Shown in pieces: positions 3,194 through 56,925 of a stretch of DNA of 64,000 nucleotides. A model generated the notes under the pieces. That model was not told where the DNA came from. It searched no databases and worked only from the letters and a program-made list of their open reading frames with translations. The DNA is from Escherichia phage inny. The position numbers and the translations under genes are program-made. Numbering within the stretch: position 1 is the stretch's first letter; every line of letters begins with the position of its first letter. The stretch lies in the sequence record MN850601.1. The stretch is one strand, 5' to 3'.

Positions 3194-3202
3194 AAACTCT
3201 CC

Positions 3203-4540: not shown

Positions 4541-4541
4541 C

Positions 4542-5601: not shown

Positions 5602-5610
5602 AATACCTAC

Positions 5611-5952: not shown

Positions 5953-5954
5953 TA

Positions 5955-7143: not shown

Positions 7144-7209
7144 TTATTTTTCCTTTGTTTAAAATGTGTTAAACAATCGCAAATGCTCGTGACGCACTTT
7201 GTGATCCCA

Positions 7210-7578
7210 CTAATTAACGTCAGCACTATGATTGTTGAGAGTATAGGATACTCCATCGCCCAAGTCAACATGAATCTCAACTCCTAACTGTCTTTCTAAT
7301 GGTAAACGTTTTGAGAATTGATAATTACAAAGTTTGCAATCTAAGTCAAGCAACTCATGTTTGCTTAAACCTGGGATGATAACTTTGCTTCCCACTGTCC
7401 ACTCAATACCTTCAAAGTTATCTCTTCTTTTCAAAATGTCAAGTAAGAAGATGATTTGTTGCCATTCCGTAGACAAGTCTTCTTCATAGAACGCAGAACA
7501 AAAAGTTTTATCATCGTAGAAAGCATACATTATGCCTCCATCTACTGTTTCACTTCTAACGTAACGTGTGACCCTCAT
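7210..7578 (-). CDS. hypothetical protein (122 aa), first gene of the minus-strand block
   Basis: ORF track; AGGAGGG SD upstream of ATG at 7578. Confidence 0.5.
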   Translation of the reverse strand: MRVTRYVRSETVDGGIMYAFYDDKTFCSAFYEEDLSTEWQQIIFLLDILKRRDNFEGIEWTVGSKVIIPGLSKHELLDLDCKLCNYQFSKRLPLERQLGVEIHVDLGDGVSYTLNNHSADVN

Positions 7579-7931
7579 TATTCCCTCCTGTATAGCTCTG
7601 TAACGAGCTAATGGCCTTTAAGATATGCAATCACCTTACCTCACAGTAAAACTCGTTACAATCGTTTTTAGGAGGTTTAGGTTGTACTTAAAAATAATCT
7701 AAAAAGGTGTTGACAAACGCAAAAAAGTATGCTACCCTAACCCCCGAAAAACGCCGAGCGCAGCGAGGGGGTGTTATCTAATCTTGTGATACATGATCTA
7801 ACAGACAACTGAGTAGTCTACATATAGCACTATGTTATGTCTATAATACTAACATACATACTCTATACTAACAATAGATTCTTTATTAATTTTATTATTA
7901 ATTAAATAATAAATTAAATAATAAATATCTA

Positions 7932-7960
7932 TTGACTTTAGATCTATCTGTATGTAGAGT
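7932..7960 (+). promoter_or_regulatory. sigma70-like promoter TTGACT-N17-TGn-TAGAGT
   Basis: -35 at 7932..7937, TG at 7953..7954, -10 at 7955..7960; 40 nt upstream of the prs-like gene. Confidence 0.55.
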
Positions 7961-7999
7961 AGAGAACATAAAGTCCTAACTCAACTAAGGAGATAAACA

Positions 8000-8893
8000 A
8001 TGAAAGTTAGTATTCTACATGGTGTTGACTGTTATGTTACTGATGTAGACGTTAAAGTCTTTACATTCTCTGGTGGAGAACAACATGTTCAACTAGACAC
8101 GAATCTATCAGGTTTCAATCATGCTACAGACAGAATCTTACTCTCTTTAGAAGTAAGATCTGCTAAAGACTTGATGACTTTGGTTATGACTAAGAATGCA
8201 TTGGACAATATGCTATATCATAAACCATATTGTGTTGATTTACTCATGTTGTATGTGCCGTATGCACGACAAGACAGAGTGTGTGAGCCTGGGGAAGCAT
8301 TCGGAGTTAAAGCCTTTGCTTCTATAATTAATTCATTAAATTTCTCACGTGTTATCGTTGCTGATCCACATAGTGATGTTACTCCGGCAGTGTTTGACAG
8401 ACTCTGTGTAATACCTCAAGAAGAGATTGCTTACGAAACTTTAAAGTGGAAGTTACGTATGGAGAATTTTGCTCTTGTTAGTCCTGATGGTGGTGCTCTT
8501 AAGAAAATATTTAAATTATCTAAGAAAATGTCTTTAGATGTGTTCTGTGCAGAGAAGGTTAGAGATACTGCAACAGGTGCTATTGTTCGTACAGACATTT
8601 CTGTACAGGATTTCAATAAGCGTAACCTGATGATCGTAGATGATATCTGTGACGGCGGTAGAACTTTTATTGAATTGGCTAAAGTGCTACGTGCTCGTAA
8701 CGCAGGTAAGATTGAGTTATATGTTACACACGGTATCTTTTCTAAAGGTCTTAAAGAGTTAAGTGAGCACTTTGACTGCATTCATTCTCTTAATGTGTGG
8801 GAAGATAACATCCAAGAAGATTCCGGTGTTCTTGTTAAGAATCAGTCAGATTTGCAACAACAAATTGTATCTCCATACGTGTGGAATTTTTAA
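8000..8893 (+). CDS. prs: ribose-phosphate pyrophosphokinase family protein (Prs-like; possibly an ADP-ribose pyrophosphokinase)
   Basis: 297 aa; Prs hallmark YVPYARQDR and PRPP-binding loop NLMIVDDICDGGRTF; AAGGAG SD. Confidence 0.85.
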   Translation: MKVSILHGVDCYVTDVDVKVFTFSGGEQHVQLDTNLSGFNHATDRILLSLEVRSAKDLMTLVMTKNALDNMLYHKPYCVDLLMLYVPYARQDRVCEPGEAFGVKAFASIINSLNFSRVIVADPHSDVTPAVFDRLCVIPQEEIAYETLKWKLRMENFALVSPDGGALKKIFKLSKKMSLDVFCAEKVRDTATGAIVRTDISVQDFNKRNLMIVDDICDGGRTFIELAKVLRARNAGKIELYVTHGIFSKGLKELSEHFDCIHSLNVWEDNIQEDSGVLVKNQSDLQQQIVSPYVWNF

Positions 8894-8903: not shown

Positions 8904-8932
8904 TTGACAATAGGGAGTATGCTTAGTAAGAT
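8904..8932 (+). promoter_or_regulatory. sigma70-like promoter TTGACA-N17-TAAGAT embedded in an 8-bp inverted repeat
   Basis: -35 at 8904..8909, -10 at 8927..8932; GGGAGTAT (8912..8919) and ATACTCCC (8930..8937) form a perfect palindrome across the -10. Confidence 0.55.
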
Positions 8933-8964: not shown

Positions 8965-10698
8965 ATGAATATTTTTGCACCTTTTGCTACTGATTGGTAT
9001 AAACCTGGTCACAAGCAGATGTACAACCAAAATACAAAACTCATTTTCTCTAATTTAACTCCTCGTAATGATAAAAACTTTGCACACTATGCAGATCGTG
9101 AAGCACGTGGTGTAATTGTTTTAGGTATTCGTCGAGCAGTTACTGATGCTCTTGTAACTATGTGGGATAGCTTCTTTAAAATGTCTCGTAGTGCAGCAGT
9201 AAATAAATTTTATCGTATGTCTAAAAATGCATTAGGTGCTTCTGCTCCTTCTGCTGAATGTTGGGGAGAATTGCACGATTTAGGTTATCTTCCGCTGGAA
9301 GTTCGATCTCTGCCAGAAGGTGTTTTGTGTCCTATTGGTGTTCCTGTGTTTACTGTGCATAATACTTTAGAAAAATTCTTTTGGTTAACTAACTATGTGG
9401 AAACACTATTGTCAGATGAAACTTGGAAGACAATGACTAATGCTACAGCAGCTTTTCAGTATAAGCGTATTGCTATGGCATATGCGATGGCAACGTGTGA
9501 TAATATTGATCATGTTAACTTCCAGTGTCATGATTTTAGCCTACGTGGTTTAAGTAATATCGAAGATGGTTATAAGAGTGGTATCGCTCATTTGGCATCT
9601 TTCACAGGAACAGATAACATTCTGGCTATTGAGACTGTGCATGATTATTATGGTATTGATTATGATCAGTTTGTTGCAGGTTCTATTCCGGCAACAGAAC
9701 ATTCAGTAGCAACGACTAACATTGGAGCTATTGTTGAAGATCTGAAGAAACATTTCCCACATCTTAAAGATGATGTTGATGGGCTTCGTTATGTAGCAGA
9801 GAAAGAGTTTCTTCGCCGCTATATTGAAGAAATTGTTCCAGAAGGTTTTTGTTCATATGTAGCAGATTCTTATGACTACTGGGCTGTCTTGACTCGCATT
9901 CTGGTCGAGTTGAAAGATTCCATTATGTCACGAAATGGTCGTCTTGTTATTCGTCCAGATTCAGGAGATCCGGTTAAAGTTGTTGCAGGATACAATGTTG
10001 AATCTTTTGATAACTATGAAGACCTTTTAAATAATGGTATTGCTACAGCCACTGAAGTAGTTCATTTGGCTGATGTTAATAAGTATTACAATGTTCTTCA
10101 GGATTGCAGTGTTGCTGATTGTATTGATGAAACTTATGAGATTCCTTATTGTGAAGCAGTAGGTTCTATTCAAATCCTTTGGGAAGTGTTTGGTGGTACT
10201 ATCAACCGAAAAGGCTACAAGGTTCTTGATCAGCACATCGGTATGATTTATGGTGATTCTATTACTGTTGAACGAGAACACGAAATCTTACGCCGACTGA
10301 AGAAGAAAGGTTTTGCAGCTTCCAATATTGTATTTGGTGTTGGTAGTTATACTTATCAGTTCAATACACGAGATACTTTTGGTTTTGCTGTTAAAGCAAC
10401 AGGTAGTATCATCGGTGAACACGAAATTTTGGTAAGTAAGGAGCCTAAAACTGATCCTGGTAAACGTTCTGCAAAAGGTTTTATTAAGGTTGTTAAGGAT
10501 ACAAACGGTAAACTTTCTCTCGTGGATAATCTTTCTTTTAAAGATATTCAAGATGAAGACAATGAGTTAAAAGTTATCTTCAGGGATGGTACGGTTATTA
10601 CACCACAAGTAGAAGGACGTGATGAAACATTTACGGATATCCGCAATCGTGTTGATGTAGAGGTTCTTCGTACTATGGGAACCATCCAGGTTGACTAA
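8965..10698 (+). CDS. nadV: nicotinamide phosphoribosyltransferase family protein (NAMPT/NadV-like)
   Basis: 577 aa; N-terminal ATDWYKPGHKQMY matches the NAMPT ATDSYK...H.KQY signature; adjacent to the Prs-like gene. Confidence 0.85.
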   Translation: MNIFAPFATDWYKPGHKQMYNQNTKLIFSNLTPRNDKNFAHYADREARGVIVLGIRRAVTDALVTMWDSFFKMSRSAAVNKFYRMSKNALGASAPSAECWGELHDLGYLPLEVRSLPEGVLCPIGVPVFTVHNTLEKFFWLTNYVETLLSDETWKTMTNATAAFQYKRIAMAYAMATCDNIDHVNFQCHDFSLRGLSNIEDGYKSGIAHLASFTGTDNILAIETVHDYYGIDYDQFVAGSIPATEHSVATTNIGAIVEDLKKHFPHLKDDVDGLRYVAEKEFLRRYIEEIVPEGFCSYVADSYDYWAVLTRILVELKDSIMSRNGRLVIRPDSGDPVKVVAGYNVESFDNYEDLLNNGIATATEVVHLADVNKYYNVLQDCSVADCIDETYEIPYCEAVGSIQILWEVFGGTINRKGYKVLDQHIGMIYGDSITVEREHEILRRLKKKGFAASNIVFGVGSYTYQFNTRDTFGFAVKATGSIIGEHEILVSKEPKTDPGKRSAKGFIKVVKDTNGKLSLVDNLSFKDIQDEDNELKVIFRDGTVITPQVEGRDETFTDIRNRVDVEVLRTMGTIQVD

Positions 10699-10719
10699 AT
10701 AAAAACTTCGTGATAAGAT
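10691..10719 (+). promoter_or_regulatory. sigma70-like promoter TTGACT-N17-TAAGAT overlapping the nadV stop
   Basis: -35 at 10691..10696, extended TG, -10 at 10714..10719. Confidence 0.5.
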
Positions 10720-10769
10720 TAAGGTAAGGAGAGCCTGCAACTGCCCTGGATGGGCTTCACGAAGGATTT

Positions 10770-10991
10770 ATGAAACAACATAATTTTTATTTTCGTTGCC
10801 GAGCCTGTAACAGACACTTGACTAATCATTCCCGTAGAGACAGGAATGGTAATATTCAAGAGTCGGATCTATGCTCGATTTGTACAAGTTTGGCATTCGA
10901 CGACAGTCCCGAAAGGGTTTATCAACATCAAAGTGTAACTGATCTTCTTCTAAATTACACAGCACCAGAGGAGGAATTAGATTTCACATAA
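10770..10991 (+). CDS. hypothetical zinc-ribbon protein (73 aa)
   Basis: ORF track; CRAC...CSIC cysteine pairs. Confidence 0.5.
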   Translation: MKQHNFYFRCRACNRHLTNHSRRDRNGNIQESDLCSICTSLAFDDSPERVYQHQSVTDLLLNYTAPEEELDFT

Positions 10992-11004
10992 TTAAGGAAA
11001 CAGT

Positions 11005-11115
11005 ATGTCTACAGAAATTATTTTTGGCTTATCTGTTTTTATTGCTATTGTATCTTTTGTATGCGGTTATACACTAGGTTACAGATCAAGAAAAAATATT
11101 GTAAAAACTAGTTGA
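11005..11115 (+). CDS. small hydrophobic protein (36 aa)
   Basis: unlisted short ORF; AAGGAAA SD 7 nt upstream of ATG; single hydrophobic helix IIFGLSVFIAIVSFVCGYTLGY. Confidence 0.3.
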   Translation: MSTEIIFGLSVFIAIVSFVCGYTLGYRSRKNIVKTS

Positions 11116-11141
11116 CAACATAGCTAGTTATTTGCTAAGAT
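11112..11141 (+). promoter_or_regulatory. sigma70-like promoter TTGACA-N18-TAAGAT
   Basis: -35 at 11112..11117, -10 at 11136..11141. Confidence 0.5.
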
Positions 11142-11171
11142 AAGCACAAGTTAAACAAAAAGGAGAAAACT

Positions 11172-11438
11172 ATGACAGAAAAGACTTATGGTAAAGAATT
11201 GATTGAGAAGCACGTATTGATTGATAATAAAGGTGGAGCAATCTTTATTTTTGAACCTGAATCAGTTCTTACTGAAAACGAAAATGGTAGCGTTAGCCTT
11301 AAAACAGAAAGTTTGGTAATTGACTTCCTTGCTCTTCTGGATGAAATGGGGCTTCCTCACGAAGAAGAAGCAGCTATTGCTTTGATTGCAGTTCTTCTGG
11401 AGAAACGCGAAGCTGGTGAAATGACCCAGTATGCTTAA
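11172..11438 (+). CDS. hypothetical protein (88 aa)
   Basis: ORF track; AAAGGAG SD. Confidence 0.55.
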   Translation: MTEKTYGKELIEKHVLIDNKGGAIFIFEPESVLTENENGSVSLKTESLVIDFLALLDEMGLPHEEEAAIALIAVLLEKREAGEMTQYA

Positions 11439-11445
11439 TATTCAA

Positions 11446-11521
11446 GGTTCCATAGCTCACTGACGAGAGCGCACACCTCATAAGTGTCGAGGGCAGGGAT
11501 TGTAACCCTGGGGAACCACCA
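11446..11521 (+). tRNA. tRNA-Met/Ile2-type (anticodon CAT), non-canonical T-loop
   Basis: hand-folded cloverleaf: acceptor GGTTCC/GGAACC, D-stem GCTC/GAGC, anticodon loop CTCATAA, encoded CCA; T-loop ATTGTAA (A54, T58) instead of TTCGAAT. Confidence 0.6.
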
Positions 11522-11552
11522 TTTAAAAGGAGGTGCTATGCATCTCCTATAT

Positions 11553-11638
11553 GCAAGTGTGGTGGAATTGGTGATACACATTGTGCTTAAAACGCAACGC
11601 TTAAATGATTGAGGGTTCGAATCCCTCCACTTGCACCA
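11553..11638 (+). tRNA. tRNA-Leu (anticodon TAA), type II
   Basis: acceptor GCAAGTG/CACTTGC, 3-bp D-stem, anticodon loop CTTAAAA, long variable arm, T-arm GAGGG-TTCGAAT-CCCTC, A73, CCA. Confidence 0.85.
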
Positions 11639-11640
11639 AC

Positions 11641-11746
11641 GCCTAGTAGGGTATTTGGTAATTCCGAGGCCATCAAAGCCTGAAAAATATGTTAGACCGT
11701 TTTGTCTAACTAAATACGAAATATGGTTCGATTCCATAACTAGGCT
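11641..11746 (+). tRNA. atypical 106-nt tRNA-like element (candidate anticodon TCA)
   Basis: perfect 7-bp acceptor GCCTAGT/ACTAGGC, D-like arm with GG loop, 4-bp stem with loop CATCAAA, extra 7-bp hairpin GTTAGAC-CGTTTT-GTCTAAC, canonical T-arm TATGG-TTCGATT-CCATA; no CCA encoded; too long for a standard tRNA. Confidence 0.3.
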
Positions 11747-11781
11747 CCCGATTTAAATAGTAATTTTTTAATAAAAATATC

Positions 11782-11810
11782 TTGACATTTACTTAGTTTT
11801 TTGTTATAGT
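11782..11810 (+). promoter_or_regulatory. sigma70-like promoter TTGACA-N17-TATAGT with extended TG
   Basis: -35 at 11782..11787, TG at 11802..11803, -10 at 11805..11810; 12 nt upstream of the tRNA at 11822. Confidence 0.6.
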
Positions 11811-11821
11811 CATTATGAAAA

Positions 11822-11903
11822 CGGGGTGTATCTCACCTGACTTCTAATCAGGCGTTAACCGAGTAATTGGAGTATGCAGGTTCGAATCCTGTCACCCCGG
11901 CCA
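11822..11903 (+). tRNA. tRNA-Arg-like (anticodon TCT) lacking a canonical D-arm
   Basis: acceptor CGGGGTG/CACCCCG, only 7 nt (TATCTCA) before a perfect anticodon arm CCTGA-CTTCTAA-TCAGG, 23-nt variable region with CCGA-GTAA-TTGG hairpin, T-arm GCAGG-TTCGAAT-CCTGT, G73, CCA. Confidence 0.45.
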
Positions 11904-11921
11904 AAAAGTTTTAAAAACTAC

Positions 11922-11951
11922 TTGACAAGCAAGATAGTTTTATGTTAGATT
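11922..11951 (+). promoter_or_regulatory. sigma70-like promoter TTGACA-N17/18-TTAGAT
   Basis: -35 at 11922..11927, TG then -10 around 11945..11951. Confidence 0.55.
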
Positions 11952-11966
11952 TAAAGTATGGTAACA

Positions 11967-12056
11967 GGAAGGTAGGGCGCAGCGGTGCGCAACCAGGTTT
12001 GAACCCTGGCCCATTGTAGCGATACGGTGATGGTTCGACTCCATTATCTTCCTCCA
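11967..12056 (+). tRNA. tRNA-Ser (anticodon TGA), type II
   Basis: acceptor GGAAGGT/ATCTTCC, anticodon arm CCAGG-TTTGAAC-CCTGG, 19-nt variable arm, T-arm GATGG-TTCGACT-CCATT, CCA. Confidence 0.85.
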
Positions 12057-12075
12057 AATTCGCTTAGGAGCTTTA

Positions 12076-12227
12076 TGAATTATAAAACTATTGGACAGAT
12101 TGTTACCGGAGTTAAGATTGTAAATAATAAAGTTGTTTATGAGTATTCTAATCTTCAACAATCTGAAGATGGTAAGAATATTCGTATGGTAAAAGCAGAA
12201 CAAAAAGATTCCGGTTGTTTTGAATAA
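12076..12227 (+). CDS. small hypothetical protein (50 aa)
   Basis: ORF track 12027..12227 starts inside tRNA-Ser; trimmed to ATG at 12076 behind TAGGAG SD. Confidence 0.3.
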
Positions 12228-12235
12228 TTAAGAAC

Positions 12236-12321
12236 GGTAGATTGGTGAAATGGTAGCCACAACAGTTTGCTAAACTGTCGTCGGAAACGGCGTGTAGGTT
12301 CAAGTCCTACATCTACCGCCA
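12236..12321 (+). tRNA. tRNA-Ser (anticodon GCT), type II
   Basis: acceptor GGTAGAT/ATCTACC, 3-bp D-stem GTG/CAC, anticodon arm ACAGT-TTGCTAA-ACTGT, long variable arm, T-arm GTAGG-TTCAAGT-CCTAC, G73, CCA. Confidence 0.85.
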
Positions 12322-12377
12322 AGTTATCTTTAATGTAGCTTGTTGCTCTTAGTTGCTTGGTGTAACTTTTTGGAAGG

Positions 12378-12439
12378 ATGGCTGCAACCATCTTACTTTA
12401 ATAGAGTAAACTTTCGGCAGATGGCCCCCACCATCTTAC
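12378..12439 (+). repeat. two near-identical hairpins (GGATGG-loop-CCATCTTAC), spaced about 45 nt
   Basis: 12378..12397 AAGGATGG-CTGCAA-CCATCTT and 12422..12439 AGATGG-CCCCCA-CCATCT; both followed by TTAC; stems resemble the T-stem of the upstream tRNA-Ser. Confidence 0.5.
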
Positions 12440-12491
12440 CGATACCTCATAGTTAGTGGTGCGAACACTGGCTATTTTAAAGATAATTTAT

Positions 12492-12567
12492 ACATCGTTA
12501 GCTTAGTTGGTAGAGCAAGGGGCTTTTAACTCCAAGGTCGAAGGTTCGAATCCTTCACGATGTACCA
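12492..12567 (+). tRNA. tRNA-Lys (anticodon TTT)
   Basis: perfect acceptor ACATCGT/ACGATGT, D-arm GCTT-AGTTGGTA-GAGC, anticodon loop CTTTTAA, T-arm GAAGG-TTCGAAT-CCTTC, A73, CCA. Confidence 0.8.
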
Positions 12568-12572
12568 AACAC

Positions 12573-12659
12573 GTAGGTATCGCATAGCGGCAATTGCTGG
12601 AGACTGTAAATCTCCTGCCCTTCGGGGCTTCGTTGGTTCGAGTCCAACTACCTGCACCA
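12573..12659 (+). tRNA. tRNA-Tyr (anticodon GTA), type II
   Basis: acceptor GTAGGTA/TACCTGC, anticodon arm GGAGA-CTGTAAA-TCTCC, variable hairpin GCCC-TTCG-GGGC, T-arm GTTGG-TTCGAGT-CCAAC, A73, CCA. Confidence 0.85.
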
Positions 12660-12666
12660 AATTAAA

Positions 12667-12751
12667 GATGGATTGGCCTAGTGGTTGGGCGACGGACTGT
12701 TAATCCGTGAACGAAAGTTCTAGCAAGGTTCAAATCCTTGATCCATCGCCA
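12667..12751 (+). tRNA. type II (Ser-like architecture) tRNA with anticodon GTT (Asn-type)
   Basis: acceptor GATGGAT/ATCCATC, 3-bp D-stem GCC/GGC, perfect anticodon arm ACGGA-CTGTTAA-TCCGT, 15-nt variable arm with GAAC-GAAA-GTTC hairpin, T-arm CAAGG-TTCAAAT-CCTTG, G73, CCA. Confidence 0.7.
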
Positions 12752-12830
12752 AATAGTGCTTGTAGAGTTAATAGAAACCTCTAGAATTTTCTAGAATTGT
12801 AGGTATCAAATCCTACCAAGCAAATATTTT

Positions 12831-12905
12831 GCTCCTATCGTATAACGGCTATTACGGTTGCCTTGTAAGCAACTTATCAGGGTTCGAGTCCTTGTGGGAG
12901 CACCA
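12831..12905 (+). tRNA. tRNA-Thr (anticodon TGT)
   Basis: acceptor GCTCCTA/TGGGAGC (one G-U), anticodon arm GTTGC-CTTGTAA-GCAAC, T-arm CAGGG-TTCGAGT-CCTTG, A73, CCA. Confidence 0.8.
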
Positions 12906-12927
12906 ATTTAACTCTAAAGGAGTGTAT

Positions 12928-13251
12928 GTGACAGAAAAAGAGTTAGAGAAATATTTTAATATCAATGTTTTCGATGGTTTTGATGATATTGAAGATGTTG
13001 AAAGATATTATGAAGTAGAGTTAGATAAGGATAACATTGTAATTCTTTCTGCCACTTATGATTGTGCATATTATGAAGGCGAATCTCACGTTTATTTCTA
13101 TGATATGAAAACATCTTTGTTTTATGAAGTACACGCATATCATTGTTCTTGTTATGGCTTAGAAGGTCAGTGGGAACCTGAAGAAATAGGTGATTTGAGC
13201 TTTACGGTTGCATATCTAAACAGACGTGGTGCATCTACTATTTTAAAATAA
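12928..13251 (+). CDS. hypothetical protein (107 aa)
   Basis: ORF track 12829..13251 begins inside tRNA-Thr; trimmed to GTG at 12928 behind AAGGAG SD. Confidence 0.5.
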   Translation: MTEKELEKYFNINVFDGFDDIEDVERYYEVELDKDNIVILSATYDCAYYEGESHVYFYDMKTSLFYEVHAYHCSCYGLEGQWEPEEIGDLSFTVAYLNRRGASTILK

Positions 13252-13265
13252 ATATTAAAAGCCTC

Positions 13266-13295
13266 TTGACAAAGGGGCTAATAATATGTTAGAGT
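13266..13295 (+). promoter_or_regulatory. sigma70-like promoter TTGACA-N18-TGT-TAGAGT
   Basis: -35 at 13266..13271, TG at 13287..13288, -10 at 13290..13295; upstream of tRNA-Gly. Confidence 0.55.
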
Positions 13296-13306
13296 AATAT
13301 TGTTAA

Positions 13307-13381
13307 GCGGGTATAGTGTTAATGGTAGCATATGAGGTTTCCACCCTCCAGGTGCAGGTTCAAGTCCTGTTACTCGCTCCA
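13307..13381 (+). tRNA. tRNA-Gly (anticodon TCC)
   Basis: acceptor GCGGGTA/TACTCGC, anticodon loop TTTCCAC, T-arm GCAGG-TTCAAGT-CCTGT, U73, CCA. Confidence 0.8.
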
Positions 13382-13480
13382 AGATTATTTAAATGGAATC
13401 GCTAGAGAAAATTTCTCTTTTCGCTCATGGTTTTCTCCTTCAAACTCTAGCGGTTCTTTTTAAGTGATTTTTAGTTTTAT

Positions 13481-13555
13481 TGGAGATTAGCCTAGTGGGA
13501 AGGCAACGGCCTTTGAAGTCGTGATGACTAGGTTCGATTCCTAGATCTCCAGCCA
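13481..13555 (+). tRNA. tRNA-Gln (anticodon TTG)
   Basis: acceptor TGGAGAT/ATCTCCA with U1-A72, D-arm GCC-TAGTGGGAA-GGC, anticodon arm ACGGC-CTTTGAA-GTCGT, T-arm CTAGG-TTCGATT-CCTAG, G73, CCA. Confidence 0.8.
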
Positions 13556-13562
13556 ATATTTA

Positions 13563-13638
13563 CAGTGCGTAGCGCAGTTGGTAGCGTGGGAGCCTTGGAC
13601 GCTTCAGGTCGCAGGTTCGAGTCCTGCCGCACTGACCA
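13563..13638 (+). tRNA. tRNA-Pro (anticodon TGG)
   Basis: acceptor CAGTGCG/CGCACTG, D-arm GCGC-AGTTGGTA-GCGT, anticodon arm GGAGC-CTTGGAC-GCTTC, T-arm GCAGG-TTCGAGT-CCTGC, A73, CCA. Confidence 0.85.
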
Positions 13639-13643
13639 AATTT

Positions 13644-13718
13644 GCAGAGATAGCTGAGACGGATTAGTGCTACCCTGAAAAGGTAGAAAGGATGGATCGT
13701 TACCATCTCTCTGCACCA
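13644..13718 (+). tRNA. tRNA-Phe (anticodon GAA), non-canonical T-loop
   Basis: perfect acceptor GCAGAGA/TCTCTGC, perfect anticodon arm CTACC-CTGAAAA-GGTAG, T-arm GATGG-ATCGTTA-CCATC (A54 and T58 swapped relative to consensus), A73, CCA. Confidence 0.7.
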
Positions 13719-13795
13719 GATAACACCATCCAAGGAGAATACTTGGTTAACTGTCAATAGCACATTGAGGCTTCTTACAGTGGTGTACTTATTAT

Positions 13796-13880
13796 GGCTA
13801 AGTGGTGGAATGGTATACACGATACGCTTAGAACGTATTGCCCCAAGGGATTGTGAGTTCGAGTCTCACCTTAGCTACCA
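13796..13880 (+). tRNA. tRNA-Leu (anticodon TAG), type II
   Basis: acceptor GGCTAAG/CTTAGCT, 3-bp D-stem GTG/CAC, anticodon arm ATACG-CTTAGAA-CGTAT, variable hairpin, T-arm GTGAG-TTCGAGT-CTCAC, A73, CCA. Confidence 0.85.
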
Positions 13881-13895
13881 AATTATTACAGGTTT

Positions 13896-13974
13896 CGCGG
13901 GATAGAGGAGTCTGGTCGTCCTCGCCAGTTTCATATGCTGGAGATCGTAGGTTCAAATCCTACTCCCGTTACCA
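13896..13974 (+). tRNA. tRNA-Met/Ile2-type (anticodon CAT), second copy, unpaired 1-72
   Basis: acceptor CGCGGGA/TCCCGTT with C1 opposite U72, D-arm GAGG-(11 nt)-CCTC, anticodon arm CCAGT-TTCATAT-GCTGG, T-arm GTAGG-TTCAAAT-CCTAC, A73, CCA. Confidence 0.65.
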
Positions 13975-14032
13975 ATAAATACCTCCCTTCTGGTGTAATG
14001 ATTAAATTACATTGACACTTCAAGGAACTCAT

Positions 14033-14115
14033 AGCCGGGTAGATTTAAAAGAGTATGGTACTCAATATGGCTCCAAACCATAGATCAGGGGGTTCGATTC
14101 CTCACCTTGCTGCCA
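14033..14115 (+). tRNA. tRNA-Trp-like (anticodon CCA) with expanded D region
   Basis: anticodon arm TATGG-CTCCAAA-CCATA, T-loop TTCGATT, G73, CCA; best acceptor AGCCGGG/CCTTGCT has one C-U mismatch and leaves about 9 extra nt before the D-stem GAGT/ACTC. Confidence 0.4.
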
Positions 14116-14120
14116 ATTAT

Positions 14121-14196
14121 TGTGGTATCGTACAGATGGTTAGTACACTCGACCGATAATCGAGAAACAACGGTTCGACTCCGTTTACCACGACCA
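14121..14196 (+). tRNA. tRNA-Ile (anticodon GAT)
   Basis: acceptor TGTGGTA/TACCACG, D-arm GTAC-AGATGGTTA-GTAC, anticodon arm CTCGA-CCGATAA-TCGAG (C33), T-arm AACGG-TTCGACT-CCGTT, A73, CCA. Confidence 0.75.
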
Positions 14197-14310
14197 AACT
14201 CCGTGCCAGCGGTGTCTTCGAAGAACAAGCCTAGTTCCTTCTGAGATGGAGGGGTGCGACTCCTTAACGCACAACATACTACTACTACTAAATACTTATC
14301 AGGAGATATC

Positions 14311-14580
14311 ATGTATACTTTAAAAGTAATTCGCAAGTTTCCTCAAGAAGAGGAAGTAAGAATTTATAACACTGTACCATTCGTAGTAAATGAAGAAGAA
14401 TTCTTTTATTGCTTAGAAGATGAAGTAATTATTCAATATCATTGGGAAGGTTACGACAGACAAGATGGTGTTGTAGCTTCTGTGCTTGCTGGTGACAGAG
14501 TGTTATTCATTCACAAAACTGAATCAGCATATTTAATGAATGATAAAGGACAAACTGTTAAAGTAATTAACAGACCATAA
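14311..14580 (+). CDS. hypothetical protein (89 aa)
   Basis: ORF track 14254..14580 trimmed to ATG at 14311 behind AGGAG SD. Confidence 0.5.
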   Translation: MYTLKVIRKFPQEEEVRIYNTVPFVVNEEEFFYCLEDEVIIQYHWEGYDRQDGVVASVLAGDRVLFIHKTESAYLMNDKGQTVKVINRP

Positions 14581-14593
14581 AGAATTTTATAAA

Positions 14594-24363: not shown

Positions 24364-24392
24364 TTGCAATAAGTCTGTTTTTGATGTATACT
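24364..24392 (+). promoter_or_regulatory. sigma70-like promoter TTGCAA-N17-TG-TATACT
   Basis: -35 at 24364..24369, -10 at 24387..24392. Confidence 0.5.
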
Positions 24393-24406
24393 AAAAAGGA
24401 GATACA

Positions 24407-24823
24407 ATGCTATTAGACCAATTTACTCTCCTTGATCTAACAACGTATCAGGGTCGTAAAAGAACCTATGTTCAAGATCCTGATTCGCCAATTTCCAATA
24501 TGGGTAATACAGTAGCATACGAAGACTTTACAATAGAGGCTGCAAGTTTGCAACCAATATCAGGTAGAACACTTCAAGCACTGCCAGAAGGATACAGATC
24601 TAAGGCACAATATAGCTTCTGGACAAAAACAGAAATCAGAGGCATCCAGCAAGGATCAGATCAATTATCTGACCAAATACTAATAGATGGACAATGGTTT
24701 TCCATTTATTCTTTGAAAGACTGGACAAGAACATCTTTCTTAATACACACACATTGTGTTGCTATTCTAGATGACCAGAATAACACCTACTCATATTCTG
24801 AGGAGGGTGGTAATTTTGGCTAA
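24407..24823 (+). CDS. hypothetical structural protein (138 aa)
   Basis: ORF track; AAAGGAG SD. Confidence 0.45.
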   Translation: MLLDQFTLLDLTTYQGRKRTYVQDPDSPISNMGNTVAYEDFTIEAASLQPISGRTLQALPEGYRSKAQYSFWTKTEIRGIQQGSDQLSDQILIDGQWFSIYSLKDWTRTSFLIHTHCVAILDDQNNTYSYSEEGGNFG

Positions 24824-25472
24824 TATCTATGAACAAATTGAATTGTATGAAAATACGATATTATTAAATATCGCTAAGTTCTTACAAAGACTAGTGGGGC
24901 TTCCGGTTTATGTTATGGATAAACCATTTGTTAAACCAACAACCCCATATCTGACATTACGTATTGTATCATCTGATGATTCAGGTGGTTGGTCACAAAA
25001 ATATTCTTTTAGTGAAGATGCGTTTTCCTATCTAATGGACAATAAGTATGAAATAGAACTTATGGCTTTTAGAGGAAGACCAATGACACTTTTAAGTTAT
25101 GTTCTTGCGGCACTTCGTGGTGCAGATGAATTAAAATACCAGTATCTTTATTCCAAAGGTATTAGCTTCTTATCTGCAACAAATGTTGCACAGGCTAACA
25201 CTGTTCTGGATGGAGATAAAACTGAACAAAGAGCGAGAATATTTCTTACATTCAATACTACGATGGTTATTGAGGATTTAGTAACTACCGAAATTGAAGC
25301 AATTAATATGAACATTCATTCGTTCAGAGATGATTACGATGATCCTACTCCAATAGATCTTCCTTTGGATAAGATTTACATTGTTGCTCACAGAAGTAAA
25401 ACTTATTACTTTACGACGACTGATGATGGATCATTAATTAAGTATATCCCAACGGATAATTCATTGGAATAA
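24816..25472 (+). CDS. hypothetical structural protein
   Basis: ORF track 24771..25472 trimmed to TTG at 24816 behind AGGAGGG; overlaps previous stop. Confidence 0.4.
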   Translation: MANIYEQIELYENTILLNIAKFLQRLVGLPVYVMDKPFVKPTTPYLTLRIVSSDDSGGWSQKYSFSEDAFSYLMDNKYEIELMAFRGRPMTLLSYVLAALRGADELKYQYLYSKGISFLSATNVAQANTVLDGDKTEQRARIFLTFNTTMVIEDLVTTEIEAINMNIHSFRDDYDDPTPIDLPLDKIYIVAHRSKTYYFTTTDDGSLIKYIPTDNSLE

Positions 25473-25492
25473 AGTTTCTAACAGGAGCATAA

Positions 25493-26899
25493 ATGGCAAC
25501 TTTTCGTGATAAGGTAGTTTCCGTAACCCTTACCTACGGTGCTACTTCAATTAGTGAAACACAGTTTGATATCCCTCTAATTCTTACAGGGCATAACGTT
25601 ACTGGCAATCTTGTAGATTATTTCACTTCTTCAGACGCACTTCTGCAAGCAGGTTTTGGCACTGCCGATCCAGCTTATAAAATGGCAAAACTACTATTTG
25701 ACGGTCTGTTCGCACCAGAACAAGTTATCGTCGGTAAGCGTGATGTTTCTAAAACAACTCTAACTCCAGTAGTTGAAGATAGTGCAACTTACGTTATCAC
25801 TATTAAAGCAAATTCAAAAAGCAAGGACTTCAAGTTTGTTGCCGATGATACTGCAACTGCTCAAGAGATTGTTGTTGGTTTAACAGAAATGATCAACGCA
25901 GACCTAGTGTATAAAGAATTTTTCACTGTGTCAAACGATGGTAGTGTTATCACTGTAACTCCAGTTGCAGGTAAATACGCTACTATGGATAGTTCAGGAT
26001 TCACAACTAAAGTAGAATATGCAAATGATATCTTAGAAGATATTGCTAAAATTGCAGACTATGAAAACAGTTGGTTCTGGTTACTATCTGATTCTCACGC
26101 AGAACAAGATATTATCGATCTAGCAGGTTATGTAGAAGAGCACGATAAAGTGTATTTCTTCTCTACCTCGCAACCAGGTGTTCTAACTAAAGAAGAAGAT
26201 AACATTCTAGAACGCTTAGGTGATATGGGCTACAATAACACTTGTATGGCACTGTGGATGACTAACGCTGATACAGTGTTCCCAGAAGCTGCTGTAGTTG
26301 GTTCTATCTGCTCTGCAACACCAGGTACTACTACCCTGCATGGTAAAACCCTTGTTGGTATCGAGATTGAAAAACTTGGTCAGACAGCAGAAAACTTTAT
26401 CGTTCAACAGAATGGTAATATTTACCGTAAAGAACACGGTGTTCTGTTCTACCGTGATGGCTTCATGGTTAGTGGTTTCTATGTTGACTATGTGGTACAC
26501 GCTCTGTGGTTCAAAGCTCGCGTAGAAGAATCTCTGTTCGCTCTATTCAAGCAGCAATCTATGCTTGGTAGTGGTGTTAGAGCAACTTCTGCTGGTCTTG
26601 CTTTGATTCGTCAGGCTGTTACTGCAAACCCAATCCAAGTAGGTATTAACAATGGTTCTATTGCCAATGAGGTAGTAACTTCAGAGGAAACAGGACTTCT
26701 GGTAAGCCTTAAACCTACTATCTATATCCCATCTCGTGCAGATATGACTGATGCTCAAATCAATGCACGTTTGGTTGATGGTATGGTTATTGAATACGTA
26801 TATGCTGGATTCTTCCACTATGTTAAAGTGCAGGTAAACGTTCTGACGAACCGCACTGCAAATAGCCAGAATTCCAATAGCTCTACTGTATCTTCATAA
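25493..26899 (+). CDS. tail sheath protein (putative)
   Basis: 468 aa; position immediately upstream of tube and tape-measure genes; size typical of contractile sheath proteins. Confidence 0.7.
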   Translation: MATFRDKVVSVTLTYGATSISETQFDIPLILTGHNVTGNLVDYFTSSDALLQAGFGTADPAYKMAKLLFDGLFAPEQVIVGKRDVSKTTLTPVVEDSATYVITIKANSKSKDFKFVADDTATAQEIVVGLTEMINADLVYKEFFTVSNDGSVITVTPVAGKYATMDSSGFTTKVEYANDILEDIAKIADYENSWFWLLSDSHAEQDIIDLAGYVEEHDKVYFFSTSQPGVLTKEEDNILERLGDMGYNNTCMALWMTNADTVFPEAAVVGSICSATPGTTTLHGKTLVGIEIEKLGQTAENFIVQQNGNIYRKEHGVLFYRDGFMVSGFYVDYVVHALWFKARVEESLFALFKQQSMLGSGVRATSAGLALIRQAVTANPIQVGINNGSIANEVVTSEETGLLVSLKPTIYIPSRADMTDAQINARLVDGMVIEYVYAGFFHYVKVQVNVLTNRTANSQNSNSSTVSS

Positions 26900-26907
26900 T
26901 TAAAAGC

Positions 26908-26930
26908 AGCGGGGGAAACCCCGCTTATAT
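26908..26930 (+). terminator. hairpin GCGGGG-GAAA-CCCCGC, weak terminator/attenuator
   Basis: perfect 6-bp GC stem after sheath stop; downstream T-run is weak. Confidence 0.4.
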
Positions 26931-26957
26931 GAAAAGTAGTATAAAAGGAGATCCACT

Positions 26958-27437
26958 TTGGATAAAATGCTTACTGGCGTAATGGCCTATGATCCTTCTC
27001 AAGTAATCCTGTCTTTGGGTGGTTGGGAACCTTGGGGTTTCGCCGCAGATACCAAAATTGTTATTAACAAAACTAACGATATCATCAACCCATATTCAGG
27101 TACTGATGGTGACGTTTCCTTGGCGCTTAGTCGTAACCGTTTAGGTACGCTAACAATGTCACTGCAACGTACTTCCCCAGCAAACGAAGTTCTTGCTGCT
27201 TATGCACAAACGATGTATTCTACTCGTCAAGTAGCATTTAGCGTATATCTGGAAGACCCTCGCGGATATTATATCAGCACAATTGGTTGGATTCAAAGCC
27301 AACCGGACGATACTATTGGTGAAACTATTCAAGAAAACCAATGGGTAATTGGTCTTAAAGATGCAAGCCTACTTCGTTCTACTGTAGGTGTTGGTGTTAA
27401 CGCACTTAACTCTATTAGTGCTCTAACTATTCAGTAA
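26958..27437 (+). CDS. tail tube protein (putative)
   Basis: 159 aa; TTG start behind AAGGAG; located between sheath and chaperone/tape-measure genes. Confidence 0.6.
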   Translation: MDKMLTGVMAYDPSQVILSLGGWEPWGFAADTKIVINKTNDIINPYSGTDGDVSLALSRNRLGTLTMSLQRTSPANEVLAAYAQTMYSTRQVAFSVYLEDPRGYYISTIGWIQSQPDDTIGETIQENQWVIGLKDASLLRSTVGVGVNALNSISALTIQ

Positions 27438-27440
27438 TAA

Positions 27441-27466
27441 AAAGGGCAGAAATGCCCTTTATTTTT
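27441..27466 (+). terminator. intrinsic terminator (GGGC-AGAAAT-GCCC + T-run)
   Basis: hairpin followed by TTTATTTTT. Confidence 0.6.
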
Positions 27467-27480
27467 AAAGAGAGGAAATA

Positions 27481-27963
27481 ATGGAACAACAAAAAGATAA
27501 TACTATTGCAAAATTTGCTCGTCCAGAAGTAATGGTTGAAATTGATCTGGATGAAGGACGCAGTGTAAAATTTAGAGTTCTCAAGTGGAGTCCAACTAAA
27601 GTTTTTGAAAGGATTCCAGAACTAGGTAGTGTACTGGCTGTTCCTATGACAATGTATAATACTGCTCTTATGTCAGCAGACGAAGATCTAGAAGCTCGTA
27701 TTGCTATGGCGCTGATCCAGTTATTCAGTGGTCTGGAAGAAAAAAACTTAGCCGCATTCTTACGTAAAATTTTAGATGAAGTTTACACAGAAGCAGGACA
27801 CAGTGTTTCCGATAATTTTGATGAATTGTTTTTTGCTCACCCAGAATTAGTTGTTGACTTAGCTGCAAAAGTTCTTGAGGTGAACTATGCCCCTTTTTTC
27901 AAACGAGGTTTCGGAAAACTGTTGACCCAATTTCAAGGAATAGAGACTCTAGCGAAGAGTTAA
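27481..27963 (+). CDS. tail assembly chaperone (putative)
   Basis: 160 aa acidic protein immediately upstream of the tape-measure gene. Confidence 0.5.
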   Translation: MEQQKDNTIAKFARPEVMVEIDLDEGRSVKFRVLKWSPTKVFERIPELGSVLAVPMTMYNTALMSADEDLEARIAMALIQLFSGLEEKNLAAFLRKILDEVYTEAGHSVSDNFDELFFAHPELVVDLAAKVLEVNYAPFFKRGFGKLLTQFQGIETLAKS

Positions 27964-28238
27964 GTCCGGCAATTAAATCAGCAATTGAAATTGCCTCACA
28001 AACCCTTAGCTTGACATGGTATGAAGTAATTCTTTGTAAGGTAATTAAGAATACCTCCGAAACCTTGTCCTCGTTAGATAATTATGGTGTAGATTATCTA
28101 CTTAAAATTTATGAATATTTAACATTTGAAGACTATGTACAAGATCTTCACGTTAAAGATGCGGATATTAAACGTGGTCAACAGAGAACAATAAGAGAAC
28201 TGGATACGGCTATGAAAAAATTAATTCCAGATTCATAA
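27879..28238 (+). CDS. -1 frame extension ORF (candidate frameshift product of the tail assembly chaperone)
   Basis: -1 frame is open from 27879 and overlaps the chaperone 3' end; slippery heptamer T-TTT-TTC at 27894..27900 in the zero-frame phase; ORF track lists 28011..28238. Confidence 0.4.
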   Translation, partial: GELCPFFQTRFRKTVDPISRNRDSSEELSPAIKSAIEIASQTLSLTWYEVILCKVIKNTSETLSSLDNYGVDYLLKIYEYLTFEDYVQDLHVKDADIKRGQQRTIRELDTAMKKLIPDS

Positions 28239-28257
28239 GTAATACGGAGGATTACCC

Positions 28258-30237
28258 TTGTTAGAAATTAACACTTCCAAGATTAAGAATACAGTAACGT
28301 TTACTGTAGATAAAGATAGTTTAAAAAATACTAAAGACGCAATTAAAAACCTTAAAACTTTTACAGAATCTATTGAACCATCTTTAAATATGACTAAAAT
28401 GCGTCGTCAATTTAAAAGTATGGAAGAGTATGCTAAAAGAATAAGGCAGCAAATGTCAGGTCTTGGCGGCGGTAATCCTCCACCAATCCCACCAACCGGA
28501 GGTTCAAGCGGTGGTGGAAAAGGAGGAAGTGGTAGAGGTGGTTCTGGATCTTCTGGAGGACGTAAAACACCAGAGGAAAGAGCCGCAGAAGCCGCCGCTA
28601 AACGTGCAGCACTTGCTAATATGAAGCAAGACGATTTTAGTTTTAAAGCTATGCCTTTTACAAAAGCAGACAGCAGAATTCTAGAAAAATCTAAAAAGAT
28701 TGTAGAAGAAACTGTTGAACTTTATCGTAAAGGTGTAATCACTAGCCAACAAATGAATAATACTTTGGCTAGACAGTTAGAAGAACTACGAAGATCTCAT
28801 AAAGAGAAGAATGCACAACTTCTTGATGAAGAGAGAGCTAGACGTAGAATTGCCCGTCTGCAAGAAGCAGAAGATAAAAGAAGACAGCGTATCCGAGAAA
28901 GAGAAAGAAAGGATTTCGAACGTCAGCAAAGAAGAGAAAAAGAAGCAAGACAACGCGACAGACAACGTAAGCTATCTGGTGTAGGTAATGCTGCTATTGC
29001 TCTTAACCCTGCTATGTTTGGTGCTGCTCTTTTAGGTGCTGGTTTATATCAAGGTATAAGTAAAATTGCCGAAGGTATTACTGCATCGGCAGAGCGTGTT
29101 AATATGGTTAGTAGAGGTGGTCAGAACGTACAGGTAAACCCTAACGCAATCTTAACAATGCGTACTTGGGGTGAAATGAACGGTGTAGACTCTGCTAGTA
29201 TTATTAAAGCTATTGATAACCTTAAAGACGTTCGTGAACGTTTAGGTAACACTGTACTCCACTCTGAATTTGATGAAAAATCAGGTAAATGGAAAGGTGG
29301 AGATAGTGGTATTAATGAAATCATGAACCAATTTGGTTGGACAAAAGAAGATGTTGCTAAATTCCAGAATAGACCTTTAGACTTTGTTCAAGCACTTGTT
29401 AATGAAGGTCAAAAAAGAGGAATGAACTCTGCGCAAATTGGTCGTCTGATGGAAAACCTTGGTGATGACTTAATGCACTACCAACGTATGTTTTTGGACA
29501 ATGGTAAAGAGTTTATGGAAGTCCTGGGAATGTTAAGTAATTCAGGCGCAACTCTTAACGACGAAAACATCCAAGCAGCACAAGATTTTGTTAAATTAAG
29601 AGCAAAAATCGATGCAGCAGGAGAAGGTTTTACCAATAACTTACTTGTAGGGTTTATGGATGGTTTAAAATCTGCACCAGATTTTGCAGAAAATATGAAA
29701 ACTTTCCAAGAAGCTGCTCGTGGTCTTGGTGAAATGTCTGGTAGTATTGTAAGTAGCCTTGCAAAAATTGCGAAATATTTCCTTGATTTTTCAAATAAGG
29801 TTGGGCCAAAAAACAATACTAAAGAAGCTGTAAGAGATTATTATAATGGTACGCAGTATGGGTACGATGCACAGGTTGGTGGTAATCCTTGGGCTTATTG
29901 GCCTATTGGAAGAGATCAACATCTGCCTGAAAATCAACCTTTAGGTAACTTTGATAGTAGTTTCTTAACTAGTGCCTTAAATCCAAGTGCTTCTAGTATT
30001 GGTTACAATAGACCTGATTTAACAGCATCTATGCTAACACCACGCCAAGGTGTTCCAATACCGTTAAGTCTAGAGAATACGGTTGTTATCCCAGACAACG
30101 CATTCCAGATTAATGTTATTCCAGATGGTTATGGTTTTAGTAATTATCTAGATGCGACAATGAATACCAGTTTTAGTAACTTCTCACAAGGTTTAACTCT
30201 TCAGTTAAGCAGTGGACAATCTTCTACTGGTGGTTAA
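28258..30237 (+). CDS. tail tape measure protein
   Basis: 659 aa; Gly/Pro low-complexity tract, Arg/Glu-rich coiled coil, hydrophobic segment; canonical position after chaperone genes. Confidence 0.75.
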   Translation: MLEINTSKIKNTVTFTVDKDSLKNTKDAIKNLKTFTESIEPSLNMTKMRRQFKSMEEYAKRIRQQMSGLGGGNPPPIPPTGGSSGGGKGGSGRGGSGSSGGRKTPEERAAEAAAKRAALANMKQDDFSFKAMPFTKADSRILEKSKKIVEETVELYRKGVITSQQMNNTLARQLEELRRSHKEKNAQLLDEERARRRIARLQEAEDKRRQRIRERERKDFERQQRREKEARQRDRQRKLSGVGNAAIALNPAMFGAALLGAGLYQGISKIAEGITASAERVNMVSRGGQNVQVNPNAILTMRTWGEMNGVDSASIIKAIDNLKDVRERLGNTVLHSEFDEKSGKWKGGDSGINEIMNQFGWTKEDVAKFQNRPLDFVQALVNEGQKRGMNSAQIGRLMENLGDDLMHYQRMFLDNGKEFMEVLGMLSNSGATLNDENIQAAQDFVKLRAKIDAAGEGFTNNLLVGFMDGLKSAPDFAENMKTFQEAARGLGEMSGSIVSSLAKIAKYFLDFSNKVGPKNNTKEAVRDYYNGTQYGYDAQVGGNPWAYWPIGRDQHLPENQPLGNFDSSFLTSALNPSASSIGYNRPDLTASMLTPRQGVPIPLSLENTVVIPDNAFQINVIPDGYGFSNYLDATMNTSFSNFSQGLTLQLSSGQSSTGG

Positions 30238-30244
30238 TGCATAA

Positions 30245-30270
30245 AGCCTCGCTTCGGCGGGGCTTTTTAT
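30245..30270 (+). terminator. intrinsic terminator (AGCCTCGC-TTCG-GCGGGGCT + T5)
   Basis: GC hairpin with TTCG loop plus U-tract after tape-measure stop. Confidence 0.7.
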
Positions 30271-30275
30271 TTGTC

Positions 30276-30305
30276 TTGACAAAGAGTTGTTTTTCGTGAT
30301 AAAAT
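30276..30305 (+). promoter_or_regulatory. sigma70-like promoter TTGACA-N18-TG-TAAAAT
   Basis: -35 at 30276..30281, -10 at 30300..30305. Confidence 0.55.
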
Positions 30306-53474: not shown

Positions 53475-53517
53475 TCAAGTCCTCATAATAACACATAATT
53501 ATAATGTTTGTCAACAC

Positions 53518-56830: not shown

Positions 56831-56898
56831 TCTCCCTCCTTAAAATATTTCTAAAGTCTTAATTTGTTAATACTGTACCACAAATTAATTGTTTTGTA

Positions 56899-56925
56899 AA
56901 GGGGCTTTCGCCCCTTCTTGTTATT
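56899..56925. terminator. GC hairpin GGGGC-TTTC-GCCCC with T-run
   Basis: between DNA polymerase start and the stop of the 56921..57316 gene. Confidence 0.5.

Follow-up and report, generated by a model that had tools for sequence, protein, structure and literature searches.

A repeated promoter-like motif runs through the 64,000-nucleotide stretch of Escherichia phage inny analysed here (MN850601.1; hereafter the window), and its copies are very probably functional promoters read by the host sigma-70 RNA polymerase holoenzyme. This reading is drawn from the make-up of the sites and from comparison with related phages: the motif is enriched, lies between genes, is oriented with them and keeps both its positions and its hexamers in diverged relatives.

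By megablast, the window belongs to a phi92-like E. coli myovirus (Stephanstirmvirinae, Justusliebigvirus) with 98-99% identity to ESCO32, VEcB and others. Minus-strand DNA-metabolism genes (bases 1-7578) are followed by a divergent A/T-rich region (7579-7999), then by a plus-strand block (8000-50896) holding the genes for PRPP synthase and NAMPT, small open reading frames (ORFs), a tRNA cluster, the spanin, terminase and portal genes and the head, tail, baseplate and fibre genes, and finally by minus-strand replication genes (50932-64000). Fifteen tRNA genes were found in the window by ARAGORN and one more by Rfam (11822-11900). The whole genome of VEcB (NC_052663, about 99% identical) was rebuilt and used for a genome-wide scan and for annotation look-up, and comparison loci were taken from IMG/VR with three anchor proteins, the portal protein (73-89% identity), NAMPT (40%) and the first protein of the baseplate module (73-76%).

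Composition and enrichment of the motif

A preliminary description of this DNA had listed twelve sites of this kind, and a -35-like and a -10-like hexamer are indeed present at all 12 coordinates. The genes said to follow them are also in place, namely those for PRPP synthase and NAMPT, four tRNA sub-clusters, the portal gene, the run from a prohead-protease-like gene to the major capsid gene, a minor head protein and the baseplate/fibre operon. The sites are given below together with two additional members, missed earlier, and a weaker candidate.

7846..7874, minus strand: weaker candidate divergent partner of P7932, TTGTTA-N17-TGtTAGTAT (TGTTAGTAT); faces the minus-strand block and has its A/T tract in common with P7932
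7932..7960, plus strand: P7932, TTGACT-N17-TAGAGT, TG misplaced by one base; 3' of a long A/T tract, 40 nt 5' of the PRPP synthase gene (8000-8893)
8904..8932, plus strand: P8904, TTGACA-N17-TAAGAT, no TG; 5' of the NAMPT gene (8965-10698)
10691..10719, plus strand: P10691, TTGACT-N17-TGaTAAGAT; overlaps the NAMPT stop codon, 5' of ORF 10770-10991
11112..11141, plus strand: P11112, TTGACA-N18-TGcTAAGAT; 5' of ORF 11172-11438 and the first tRNAs
11782..11810, plus strand: P11782, TTGACA-N17-TGtTATAGT; end of the -10 lies 12 nt 5' of the tRNA(TCT)-like gene 11822-11900
11922..11951, plus strand: P11922, TTGACA-N18-TGtTAGATT; end of the -10 lies 16 nt 5' of tRNA-Ser(TGA) at 11967
13266..13295, plus strand: P13266, TTGACA-N18-TGtTAGAGT; end of the -10 lies 12 nt 5' of tRNA-Gly(TCC) at 13307, with the -35 in the loop of a small hairpin
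14638..14666, plus strand: P14638, TTTACA-N17-TGtTATCCT; 3' of a terminator at 14591-14615, 5' of ORF 14687-14977
18087..18116, plus strand: P18087, TTGACA-N18-TGtTAAAGT; between the terminase and portal genes
19781..19809, plus strand: P19781, TTGACA-N17-TAGACT, TG off by one base; 3' of the portal gene, 5' of the run from the prohead-protease-like to the major capsid gene
24364..24392, plus strand: P24364, TTGCAA-N17-TATACT, weak -35 and misplaced TG; 5' of the minor head protein gene at 24407
30276..30305, plus strand: P30276, TTGACA-N18-TGaTAAAAT; 5' of the baseplate/fibre run of about 20 kb (30353-50896)
53485..53514, minus strand: additional member, TTGACA-N18-TGtTATTAT; 11 nt 5' of ORF 53474-53076
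56872..56900, minus strand: additional member, TTTACA-N17-TGgTACAGT; 5' of the DNA polymerase gene (56830-54251)

The formula first proposed for the family, TTGACA-N17/18-TGnTAnAnT, has no match in the window when taken literally, since the 17/18 bp are counted up to the -10 hexamer and already include the TG. Re-read as TTGACA-N14/15-TGNTANNNT, the motif has nine matches against 0.24 expected, a count that none of 100 shuffles reached, and six of the nine belong to the twelve listed sites. The features described as common to all sites held for a part of them. TTGACA is perfect (6/6) at 8 of the 12, whereas P7932 and P10691 have TTGACT, P14638 has TTTACA and P24364 has TTGCAA, so that the -35 match is 5/6 at three sites and 4/6 at one. 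The TG of an extended -10 stands at -15/-14 in 8 of the 12 and at both additional minus-strand sites, but it is one base too close at 7932, 19781 and 24364, and 8904 has none. A -10 of the form TA-N-A-N-T does not accommodate TAAGAT (three sites) or TATCCT; the form found at all 12 sites and at the two additional ones is TAnnnT, with A2 and T6 invariant and a spacer of 17 or 18 bp. The range given for the family, starting at 10691, also excluded two of its own sites, 7932 and 8904. Promoters of the strict extended -10 class have no discernible -35 and are independent of sigma region 4 (PMC3950348). The window sites, with a consensus -35 that is present and conserved, fall outside this class and, as their sequence reads, are -35/-10 promoters additionally carrying TG.

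Enrichment was assessed with criteria for strong sites set independently of the window (at least 5/6 matches in the -35 and, in the -10, at least 4/6 including A2 and T6; in addition, a perfect -35 or a TG was required). Strong sites numbered 24 against 6.5 expected and 20 against 5.5 expected in Markov simulations. When only the 5.1 kb of intergenic DNA was considered, 12 strong sites co-oriented with the genes were found against 0.37 expected, a number reached by none of 1000 dinucleotide shuffles, and no antisense strong site was present (12 to 0, p=0.0005). The enrichment is limited to these top-tier sites. A relaxed scan at 9/12 consensus positions gave no enrichment in any third of the window (67 vs 61, 70 vs 66 and 70 vs 61 in shuffles) and, with counts no better than those of the shuffles, is uninformative. 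Likewise, TGNTANNNT alone is not enriched in intergenic DNA and is therefore unusable for finding members that lack a -35; the candidates at 7854, 62583 and 63855 on the minus strand and at 15086 on the plus strand are weak.

Conservation and predicted transcription units

In relatives with 73-89% portal identity, every strong match is intergenic and lies 5' of the same orthologues (portal, the gene after portal, 14687, 10770 and the tRNA region). Across relatives with 40-89% anchor-protein identity, promoters recur at the junctions of NAMPT, of the small ORFs ahead of the tRNAs, of tRNA-Ser/Gly/Arg and of the portal, prohead-protease-like and minor head protein genes, the hexamers being kept while the spacers have diverged, and this conservation of the contact hexamers with drifting spacers is the pattern predicted by selection on promoter function. 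Upstream of portal, the -35 and a -10 of the form TGTTAnnnT / TGTACAAT are retained in all lineages compared while the spacer and the flanks change; 3' of portal, the whole of P19781 is retained in all lineages, upstream A/T tract included. In the tRNA region, a promoter stands ahead of tRNA-Ser(TGA) in four lineages (relatives L013, L009 and L011), of tRNA-Gly(TCC) in three (relatives L007 and L013) and of tRNA-Arg(TCT) in two (relative L007). Counterparts of P14638 lie ahead of the orthologue of ORF 14687-14977 in L007 and L013, those of P10691 ahead of the orthologue of ORF 10770-10991 in L013 and L009, and the P24364 form TTGCA(A/T)-N17-TATACT is kept in four lineages (L007, L013, L009 and L011). 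In L020, the relative with 40% NAMPT identity, TTGACT-N17-TAGAAT precedes NAMPT, and a terminator and TTGACT-N16-TGaTATACT follow it. P30276 has a counterpart in L021 and, as TTGACA-N18-TGcTATCAT, in L023.

Of the transcription by unmodified host RNA polymerase proposed in the preliminary description, the part that concerns recognition by the host enzyme is well supported by these data, the -35 and -10 boxes both being kept in diverged relatives, and the conserved -35 implies a contact with sigma region 4 of the host holoenzyme. No phage RNA polymerase, sigma factor or anti-sigma factor is found in the annotation of VEcB, where no proteome-wide scan for polymerase-binding proteins was made; more than half of the genes, including most early genes, are hypothetical. 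A late promoter class of the T4 type was also considered and rejected, since its gp55-dependent motif TATAAATA shows no enrichment (6 matches vs 7.4 expected) and does not occur in any late intergenic gap of the plus strand.

In this reading, the promoters combine a -35 that is mostly TTGACA with a spacer of 17 or 18 bp and a sub-consensus -10, TAnnnT. The TG at -15/-14, in about two thirds of the sites, would compensate for the weak -10 and the long spacer, and the A/T-rich upstream tract may serve as an UP element. Such promoters would cut the rightward block into short transcription units: PRPP synthase; NAMPT; two small ORFs; four tRNA sub-operons, with predicted starts only about 5-10 nt 5' of the first tRNA; lysis/terminase; portal; prohead protease to major capsid; neck/tail; and the baseplate/fibre genes over about 20 kb.

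Most of the promoters are placed directly 3' of, or within, a hairpin or terminator, which suggests that the incoming transcript is ended or attenuated where the next one begins. The main structures in the late region are the following.

18128..18149, plus strand: G+C hairpin in the portal leader, just 3' of P18087
19790..19831, plus strand: hairpin of 15-18 bp around the -10 of P19781, U-rich on its 3' side (z about -4.1 to -4.5)
22894..22924, plus strand: strong intrinsic terminator 3' of the major capsid gene
30243..30266, plus strand: terminator 3' of the tape-measure gene, directly 5' of P30276

Terminators lie just 5' of P14638, P30276 and the minus-strand promoter at 56872..56900, which takes its -35 from the tail of a GGGGCGAAAGCCCC hairpin. 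The portal-leader hairpin keeps its structure in five lineages, with a different sequence in each, and the P19781 hairpin shows G-U and compensatory changes between lineages. Since transcripts started at P19781 would miss the 5' arm of the stem, we read the latter as a probable site at which the portal transcript arriving from upstream is terminated or processed and which overlaps the promoter that follows. Among the smaller repeats, one covers the -35 of P11112, another that of P13266 and an 8-bp inverted repeat (GGGAGTAT/ATACTCCC) the -10 of P8904, and in L023 (1384-1440) a perfect 12-bp repeat, TTGTACATCAGT / ACTGATGTACAA, encloses an entire promoter. A common operator among these inverted repeats was rejected: their sequences differ from site to site, making a shared repressor site unlikely.

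The terminator at 22894..22924 is not followed by a promoter in any lineage compared, and the genes downstream therefore need read-through. The same dependence follows for other late genes, since in all lineages four gaps (22894-22924, the gap after the sheath gene, 27441-27460 and one near 46040) contain no more than a ribosome-binding site and a hairpin or terminator. Two to four promoters and the read-through of terminators would have to serve about 30 kb of late genes; partial read-through would provide for the late genes that have no promoter of their own and would fit a low virion copy number. Against the earlier proposal, which drew on strong host-type promoters in late-gene regions, only four of the 12 sites are in virion-gene territory, and of these 24364 is weak and 30276 is, in the lineages compared, lineage-specific.

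A second promoter class, related systems and competing readings

The genome-wide motif scan suggested in the preliminary description was run on VEcB and gave 70 strong sites co-oriented with the genes, with 13 antisense. A dense cluster of about 20 strong sites (block E) lies at 137.0-146.2 kb of VEcB, outside the window, and is also seen in loci L014/L016. In this cluster, one cassette precedes almost every small hypothetical gene, and it consists of an A-rich tract, TTGACA, N16/17 and TAnnnT, mostly without TG, followed by a conserved transcribed leader hairpin, CACATAGGGCGGGAAAtggTTTCCCGC. The two sets differ as follows.

18-bp spacer: window family 6/14, VEcB cluster 0/20 (p=0.002)
16-bp spacer: window family 0/14, VEcB cluster 11/20 (p=0.0007)
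correctly placed TG: window family 10/14, VEcB cluster 5/20 (p=0.013)
CACATA-type leader: window family 0/14, VEcB cluster 9/20 (p=0.004)

With its 17/18-bp spacers and TGTTA against the architecture of block E, the window family is a distinct sub-class, and the existence of two promoter architectures hints at differential rather than uniform control.

Similar promoters have been described in rV5, across which 33 sigma-70-like promoters were predicted, 11 of them with an extended -10, and annotated as regulatory features (NC_011041; Kropinski et al. 2013, PMC3606486); the authors concluded that modification of RNA polymerase 'might not occur' (PMC3606486). The architecture is the same (e.g., P075, TTGACA-N17-TGATAAGAT) and equivalent junctions are occupied: P(tRNA) lies ahead of tRNA-Arg, P74 and P75 ahead of small ORFs leading the tRNA cluster and P51 within the tail module, while P064 and the hairpin t064, annotated as a terminator, stand between the terminase gene and the gene in portal position, as P18087 and the hairpin at 18128..18149 do here. 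However, rV5 belongs to the Vequintavirinae and the window phage to the Stephanstirmvirinae; the structural/tRNA unit of rV5 has 17-bp spacers throughout whereas 6 of the 14 members of the window family have 18 bp, 16-bp spacers occur in rV5 only in its P174-P205 group, and the rV5 region inspected contains no NAMPT or PRPP synthase promoters. The rV5 sites are annotated and sites of the window type are unannotated in the nearest relatives, both sets being predictions only. In Certrevirus phages CB7 and CR3, which are of the same broad group without an RNA polymerase of their own, an early cluster of sigma-70-like promoters has been reported (PMC7344957). It shares with the window family a host-type -35/-10 and an A-rich upstream element, but it resembles the class at 137-146 kb of VEcB and sits in a presumed-early region of small ORFs, unlike the window family. 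The extended -10 middle/late promoters of Thermus phage P23-45 and the AsiA-resistant promoters of T4 (PMC3950348) also have TG at -15/-14 and serve later-acting genes in phages that depend on host RNA polymerase; in contrast to the window sites, with their consensus and conserved -35, they have no recognisable -35 and work together with a factor that displaces sigma region 4.

Since equivalent promoters and the same conclusion have already been published for rV5, the window set is ordinary and of low novelty. What is new here is the statistical and comparative support, the correction of the motif, the two extra members, the contrast with a second class and the coupling of promoters to hairpins. 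The results give a usable map of transcription units for phi92-like phages, which are under development for therapy and whose GenBank records carry no regulatory annotation, and they add to motif matching comparative evidence that host-type promoters ahead of portal, head and tail genes are under selection. They also sharpen a question common to rV5-, phi92- and Felix-O1-like myoviruses, that of how late genes are delayed when neither a polymerase nor a sigma factor of the phage has been identified, and the existence of two promoter architectures offers a concrete and testable handle on it.

Several points weigh against the reading of the sites as host promoters or limit it. A correctly placed TG is missing at 4 of the 12 sites and the -35 is weak at two; P30276 is absent at its junction in relatives of 73-76% identity (L025-L029); and for Vequintavirinae or Stephanstirmvirinae, phi92 included, no start-site, in vitro transcription or time-course data were found in the literature. 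Strong sigma-70 promoters ahead of virion genes do not account for the delay of late genes in time, and the separate promoter class elsewhere in the genome suggests a regulatory layer beyond host promoters. A temporal programme might then be encoded purely in sigma-70 promoter architecture, with no phage sigma factor, immediate-early promoters having 16/17-bp spacers, a leader hairpin and no TG and delayed promoters having 17/18-bp spacers and TG(T)TA; this is a speculative extension that we consider rather unlikely. In such a programme the delayed class would be the one preceding the genes for NAD salvage, tRNAs and the virion, the switch could come from a small phage protein or a change in template topology, and promoters enclosed in hairpins might act as insulators between units.

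The same contrast in spacer and TG between the window family and block E, together with the lack of the CACATAGGGCGGGAAA leader in the window, could also be explained if the polymerase were modified, a phage protein masking or displacing sigma region 4 and silencing the TG-less early promoters with 16/17-bp spacers while the TG-bearing ones of the NAD/tRNA/virion block stayed active, so that TG and a long spacer would mark a middle/late class. There is precedent in the extended -10 promoters that escape gp39 of Thermus phage P23-45 and AsiA of T4 (PMC3950348), the authors of the CB7 study likewise suspected a takeover of RNA polymerase (PMC7344957), and the 'late' MEME motif of rV5, TGGTAAAAT, is an extended -10. 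The rV5 list shows a trend in the same direction, with TG in 4/6 of the structural/tRNA-unit promoters and in 9/27 of the others, but it falls short of significance (p=0.18). Block E is only assumed to be early, no anti-sigma or RNA polymerase-binding protein is annotated in VEcB, and most window sites have a perfect TTGACA that is kept across lineages; this implies selection on the contact with sigma region 4, unlike in true extended -10 promoters devoid of a -35. We thus regard this possibility as doubtful. The 'Srd-like' gp11 of rV5 was rejected as evidence for an anti-sigma factor, since it matches no Pfam family and neither VEcB nor the window has a homologue.

It could also be proposed that the sites are copies of a repeated intergenic cassette of promoter and stem-loop, spread by duplication or recombination and serving as points of recombination or shuffling, with promoter activity being secondary. 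The promoter-early-stem-loop (PeSL) cassettes of T4-type phages are comparable repeated units. Sites 11112, 11922, 13266 and 18087 share 64-76% identity over 38-45 nt, spacer and upstream A-tract included, many sites adjoin or lie within inverted repeats, the gene content of the tRNA cluster varies among relatives, and the block E promoters, with their conserved leader hairpin, clearly are repeated cassettes. Most window sites, however, share only the positions contacted by the polymerase, they are strictly co-oriented with the genes, and the drift of spacers and flanks around conserved orthologous hexamers indicates selection on promoter function rather than recent copying, which makes this origin improbable. 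Chance matches in A/T-rich intergenic DNA would agree with the failure of the relaxed scan to exceed its shuffles and of TGNTANNNT alone to be enriched between genes, but they are hardly conceivable given the intergenic excess in dinucleotide-preserving shuffles, the one-sided orientation and the conservation of positions across genera; the intergenic shuffle test and the positional conservation refute them.

Observations in the tRNA cluster and neighbouring genes

The tRNA found by Rfam alone at 11822-11900 on the plus strand (38.6 bits, threshold 29) was missed by ARAGORN; on visual inspection, its anticodon loop reads TCT (Arg), its D region is very short and its variable region is long. 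At the same place in L007 (120-196), an intact tRNA-Arg(TCT) follows the same promoter. Conversely, the first tRNA-Met called by ARAGORN (11446-11521, plus strand) has no Rfam hit at E<=0.1 and no annotation in VEcB, and it may be a false call or degenerate. Remnants resembling tRNAs, with a GGTTCGATTCC T-arm and a CCA-like end, lie on the plus strand at 11650-11740, 14040-14117 and 14197-14253 (e.g., 14091-14117 in repeat family D3). The 15-16 tRNAs of the window compare with 17-20 in relatives, suggesting decay or turnover of tRNA genes. In VEcB, an HNH endonuclease gene (53110-53469) is located between tRNA-Gln and tRNA-Pro and is absent from the window (13555-13563); homing endonucleases are gained and lost in the tRNA cluster.

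The 420-bp region at 7579-7999 has no convincing ORF and carries two candidate promoters placed back to back (plus strand, P7932; minus strand, TTGTTA-N17-TGTTAGTAT) as well as a G+C hairpin at about 7752-7765. A further TTGACA-N17-TGcTACCCT occurs at 7710, within a small ORF annotated as gp103 in VEcB. A small RNA or a regulatory hub may lie here.

In VEcB and rV5, the gene after portal (19834-20325, plus strand) carries the annotation 'DNA methyltransferase'. This is probably wrong, since the gene also has matches among head-maturation-protease PHROGs (1e-12) and occupies the position expected of a prohead protease. Finally, a 123-aa protein encoded at 5611-5982 on the minus strand, hypothetical in relatives, matches the Pfam family cREC_REC (PF20274, cyclic-phosphate processing receiver domain) at 4e-13, above the curated cut-off.

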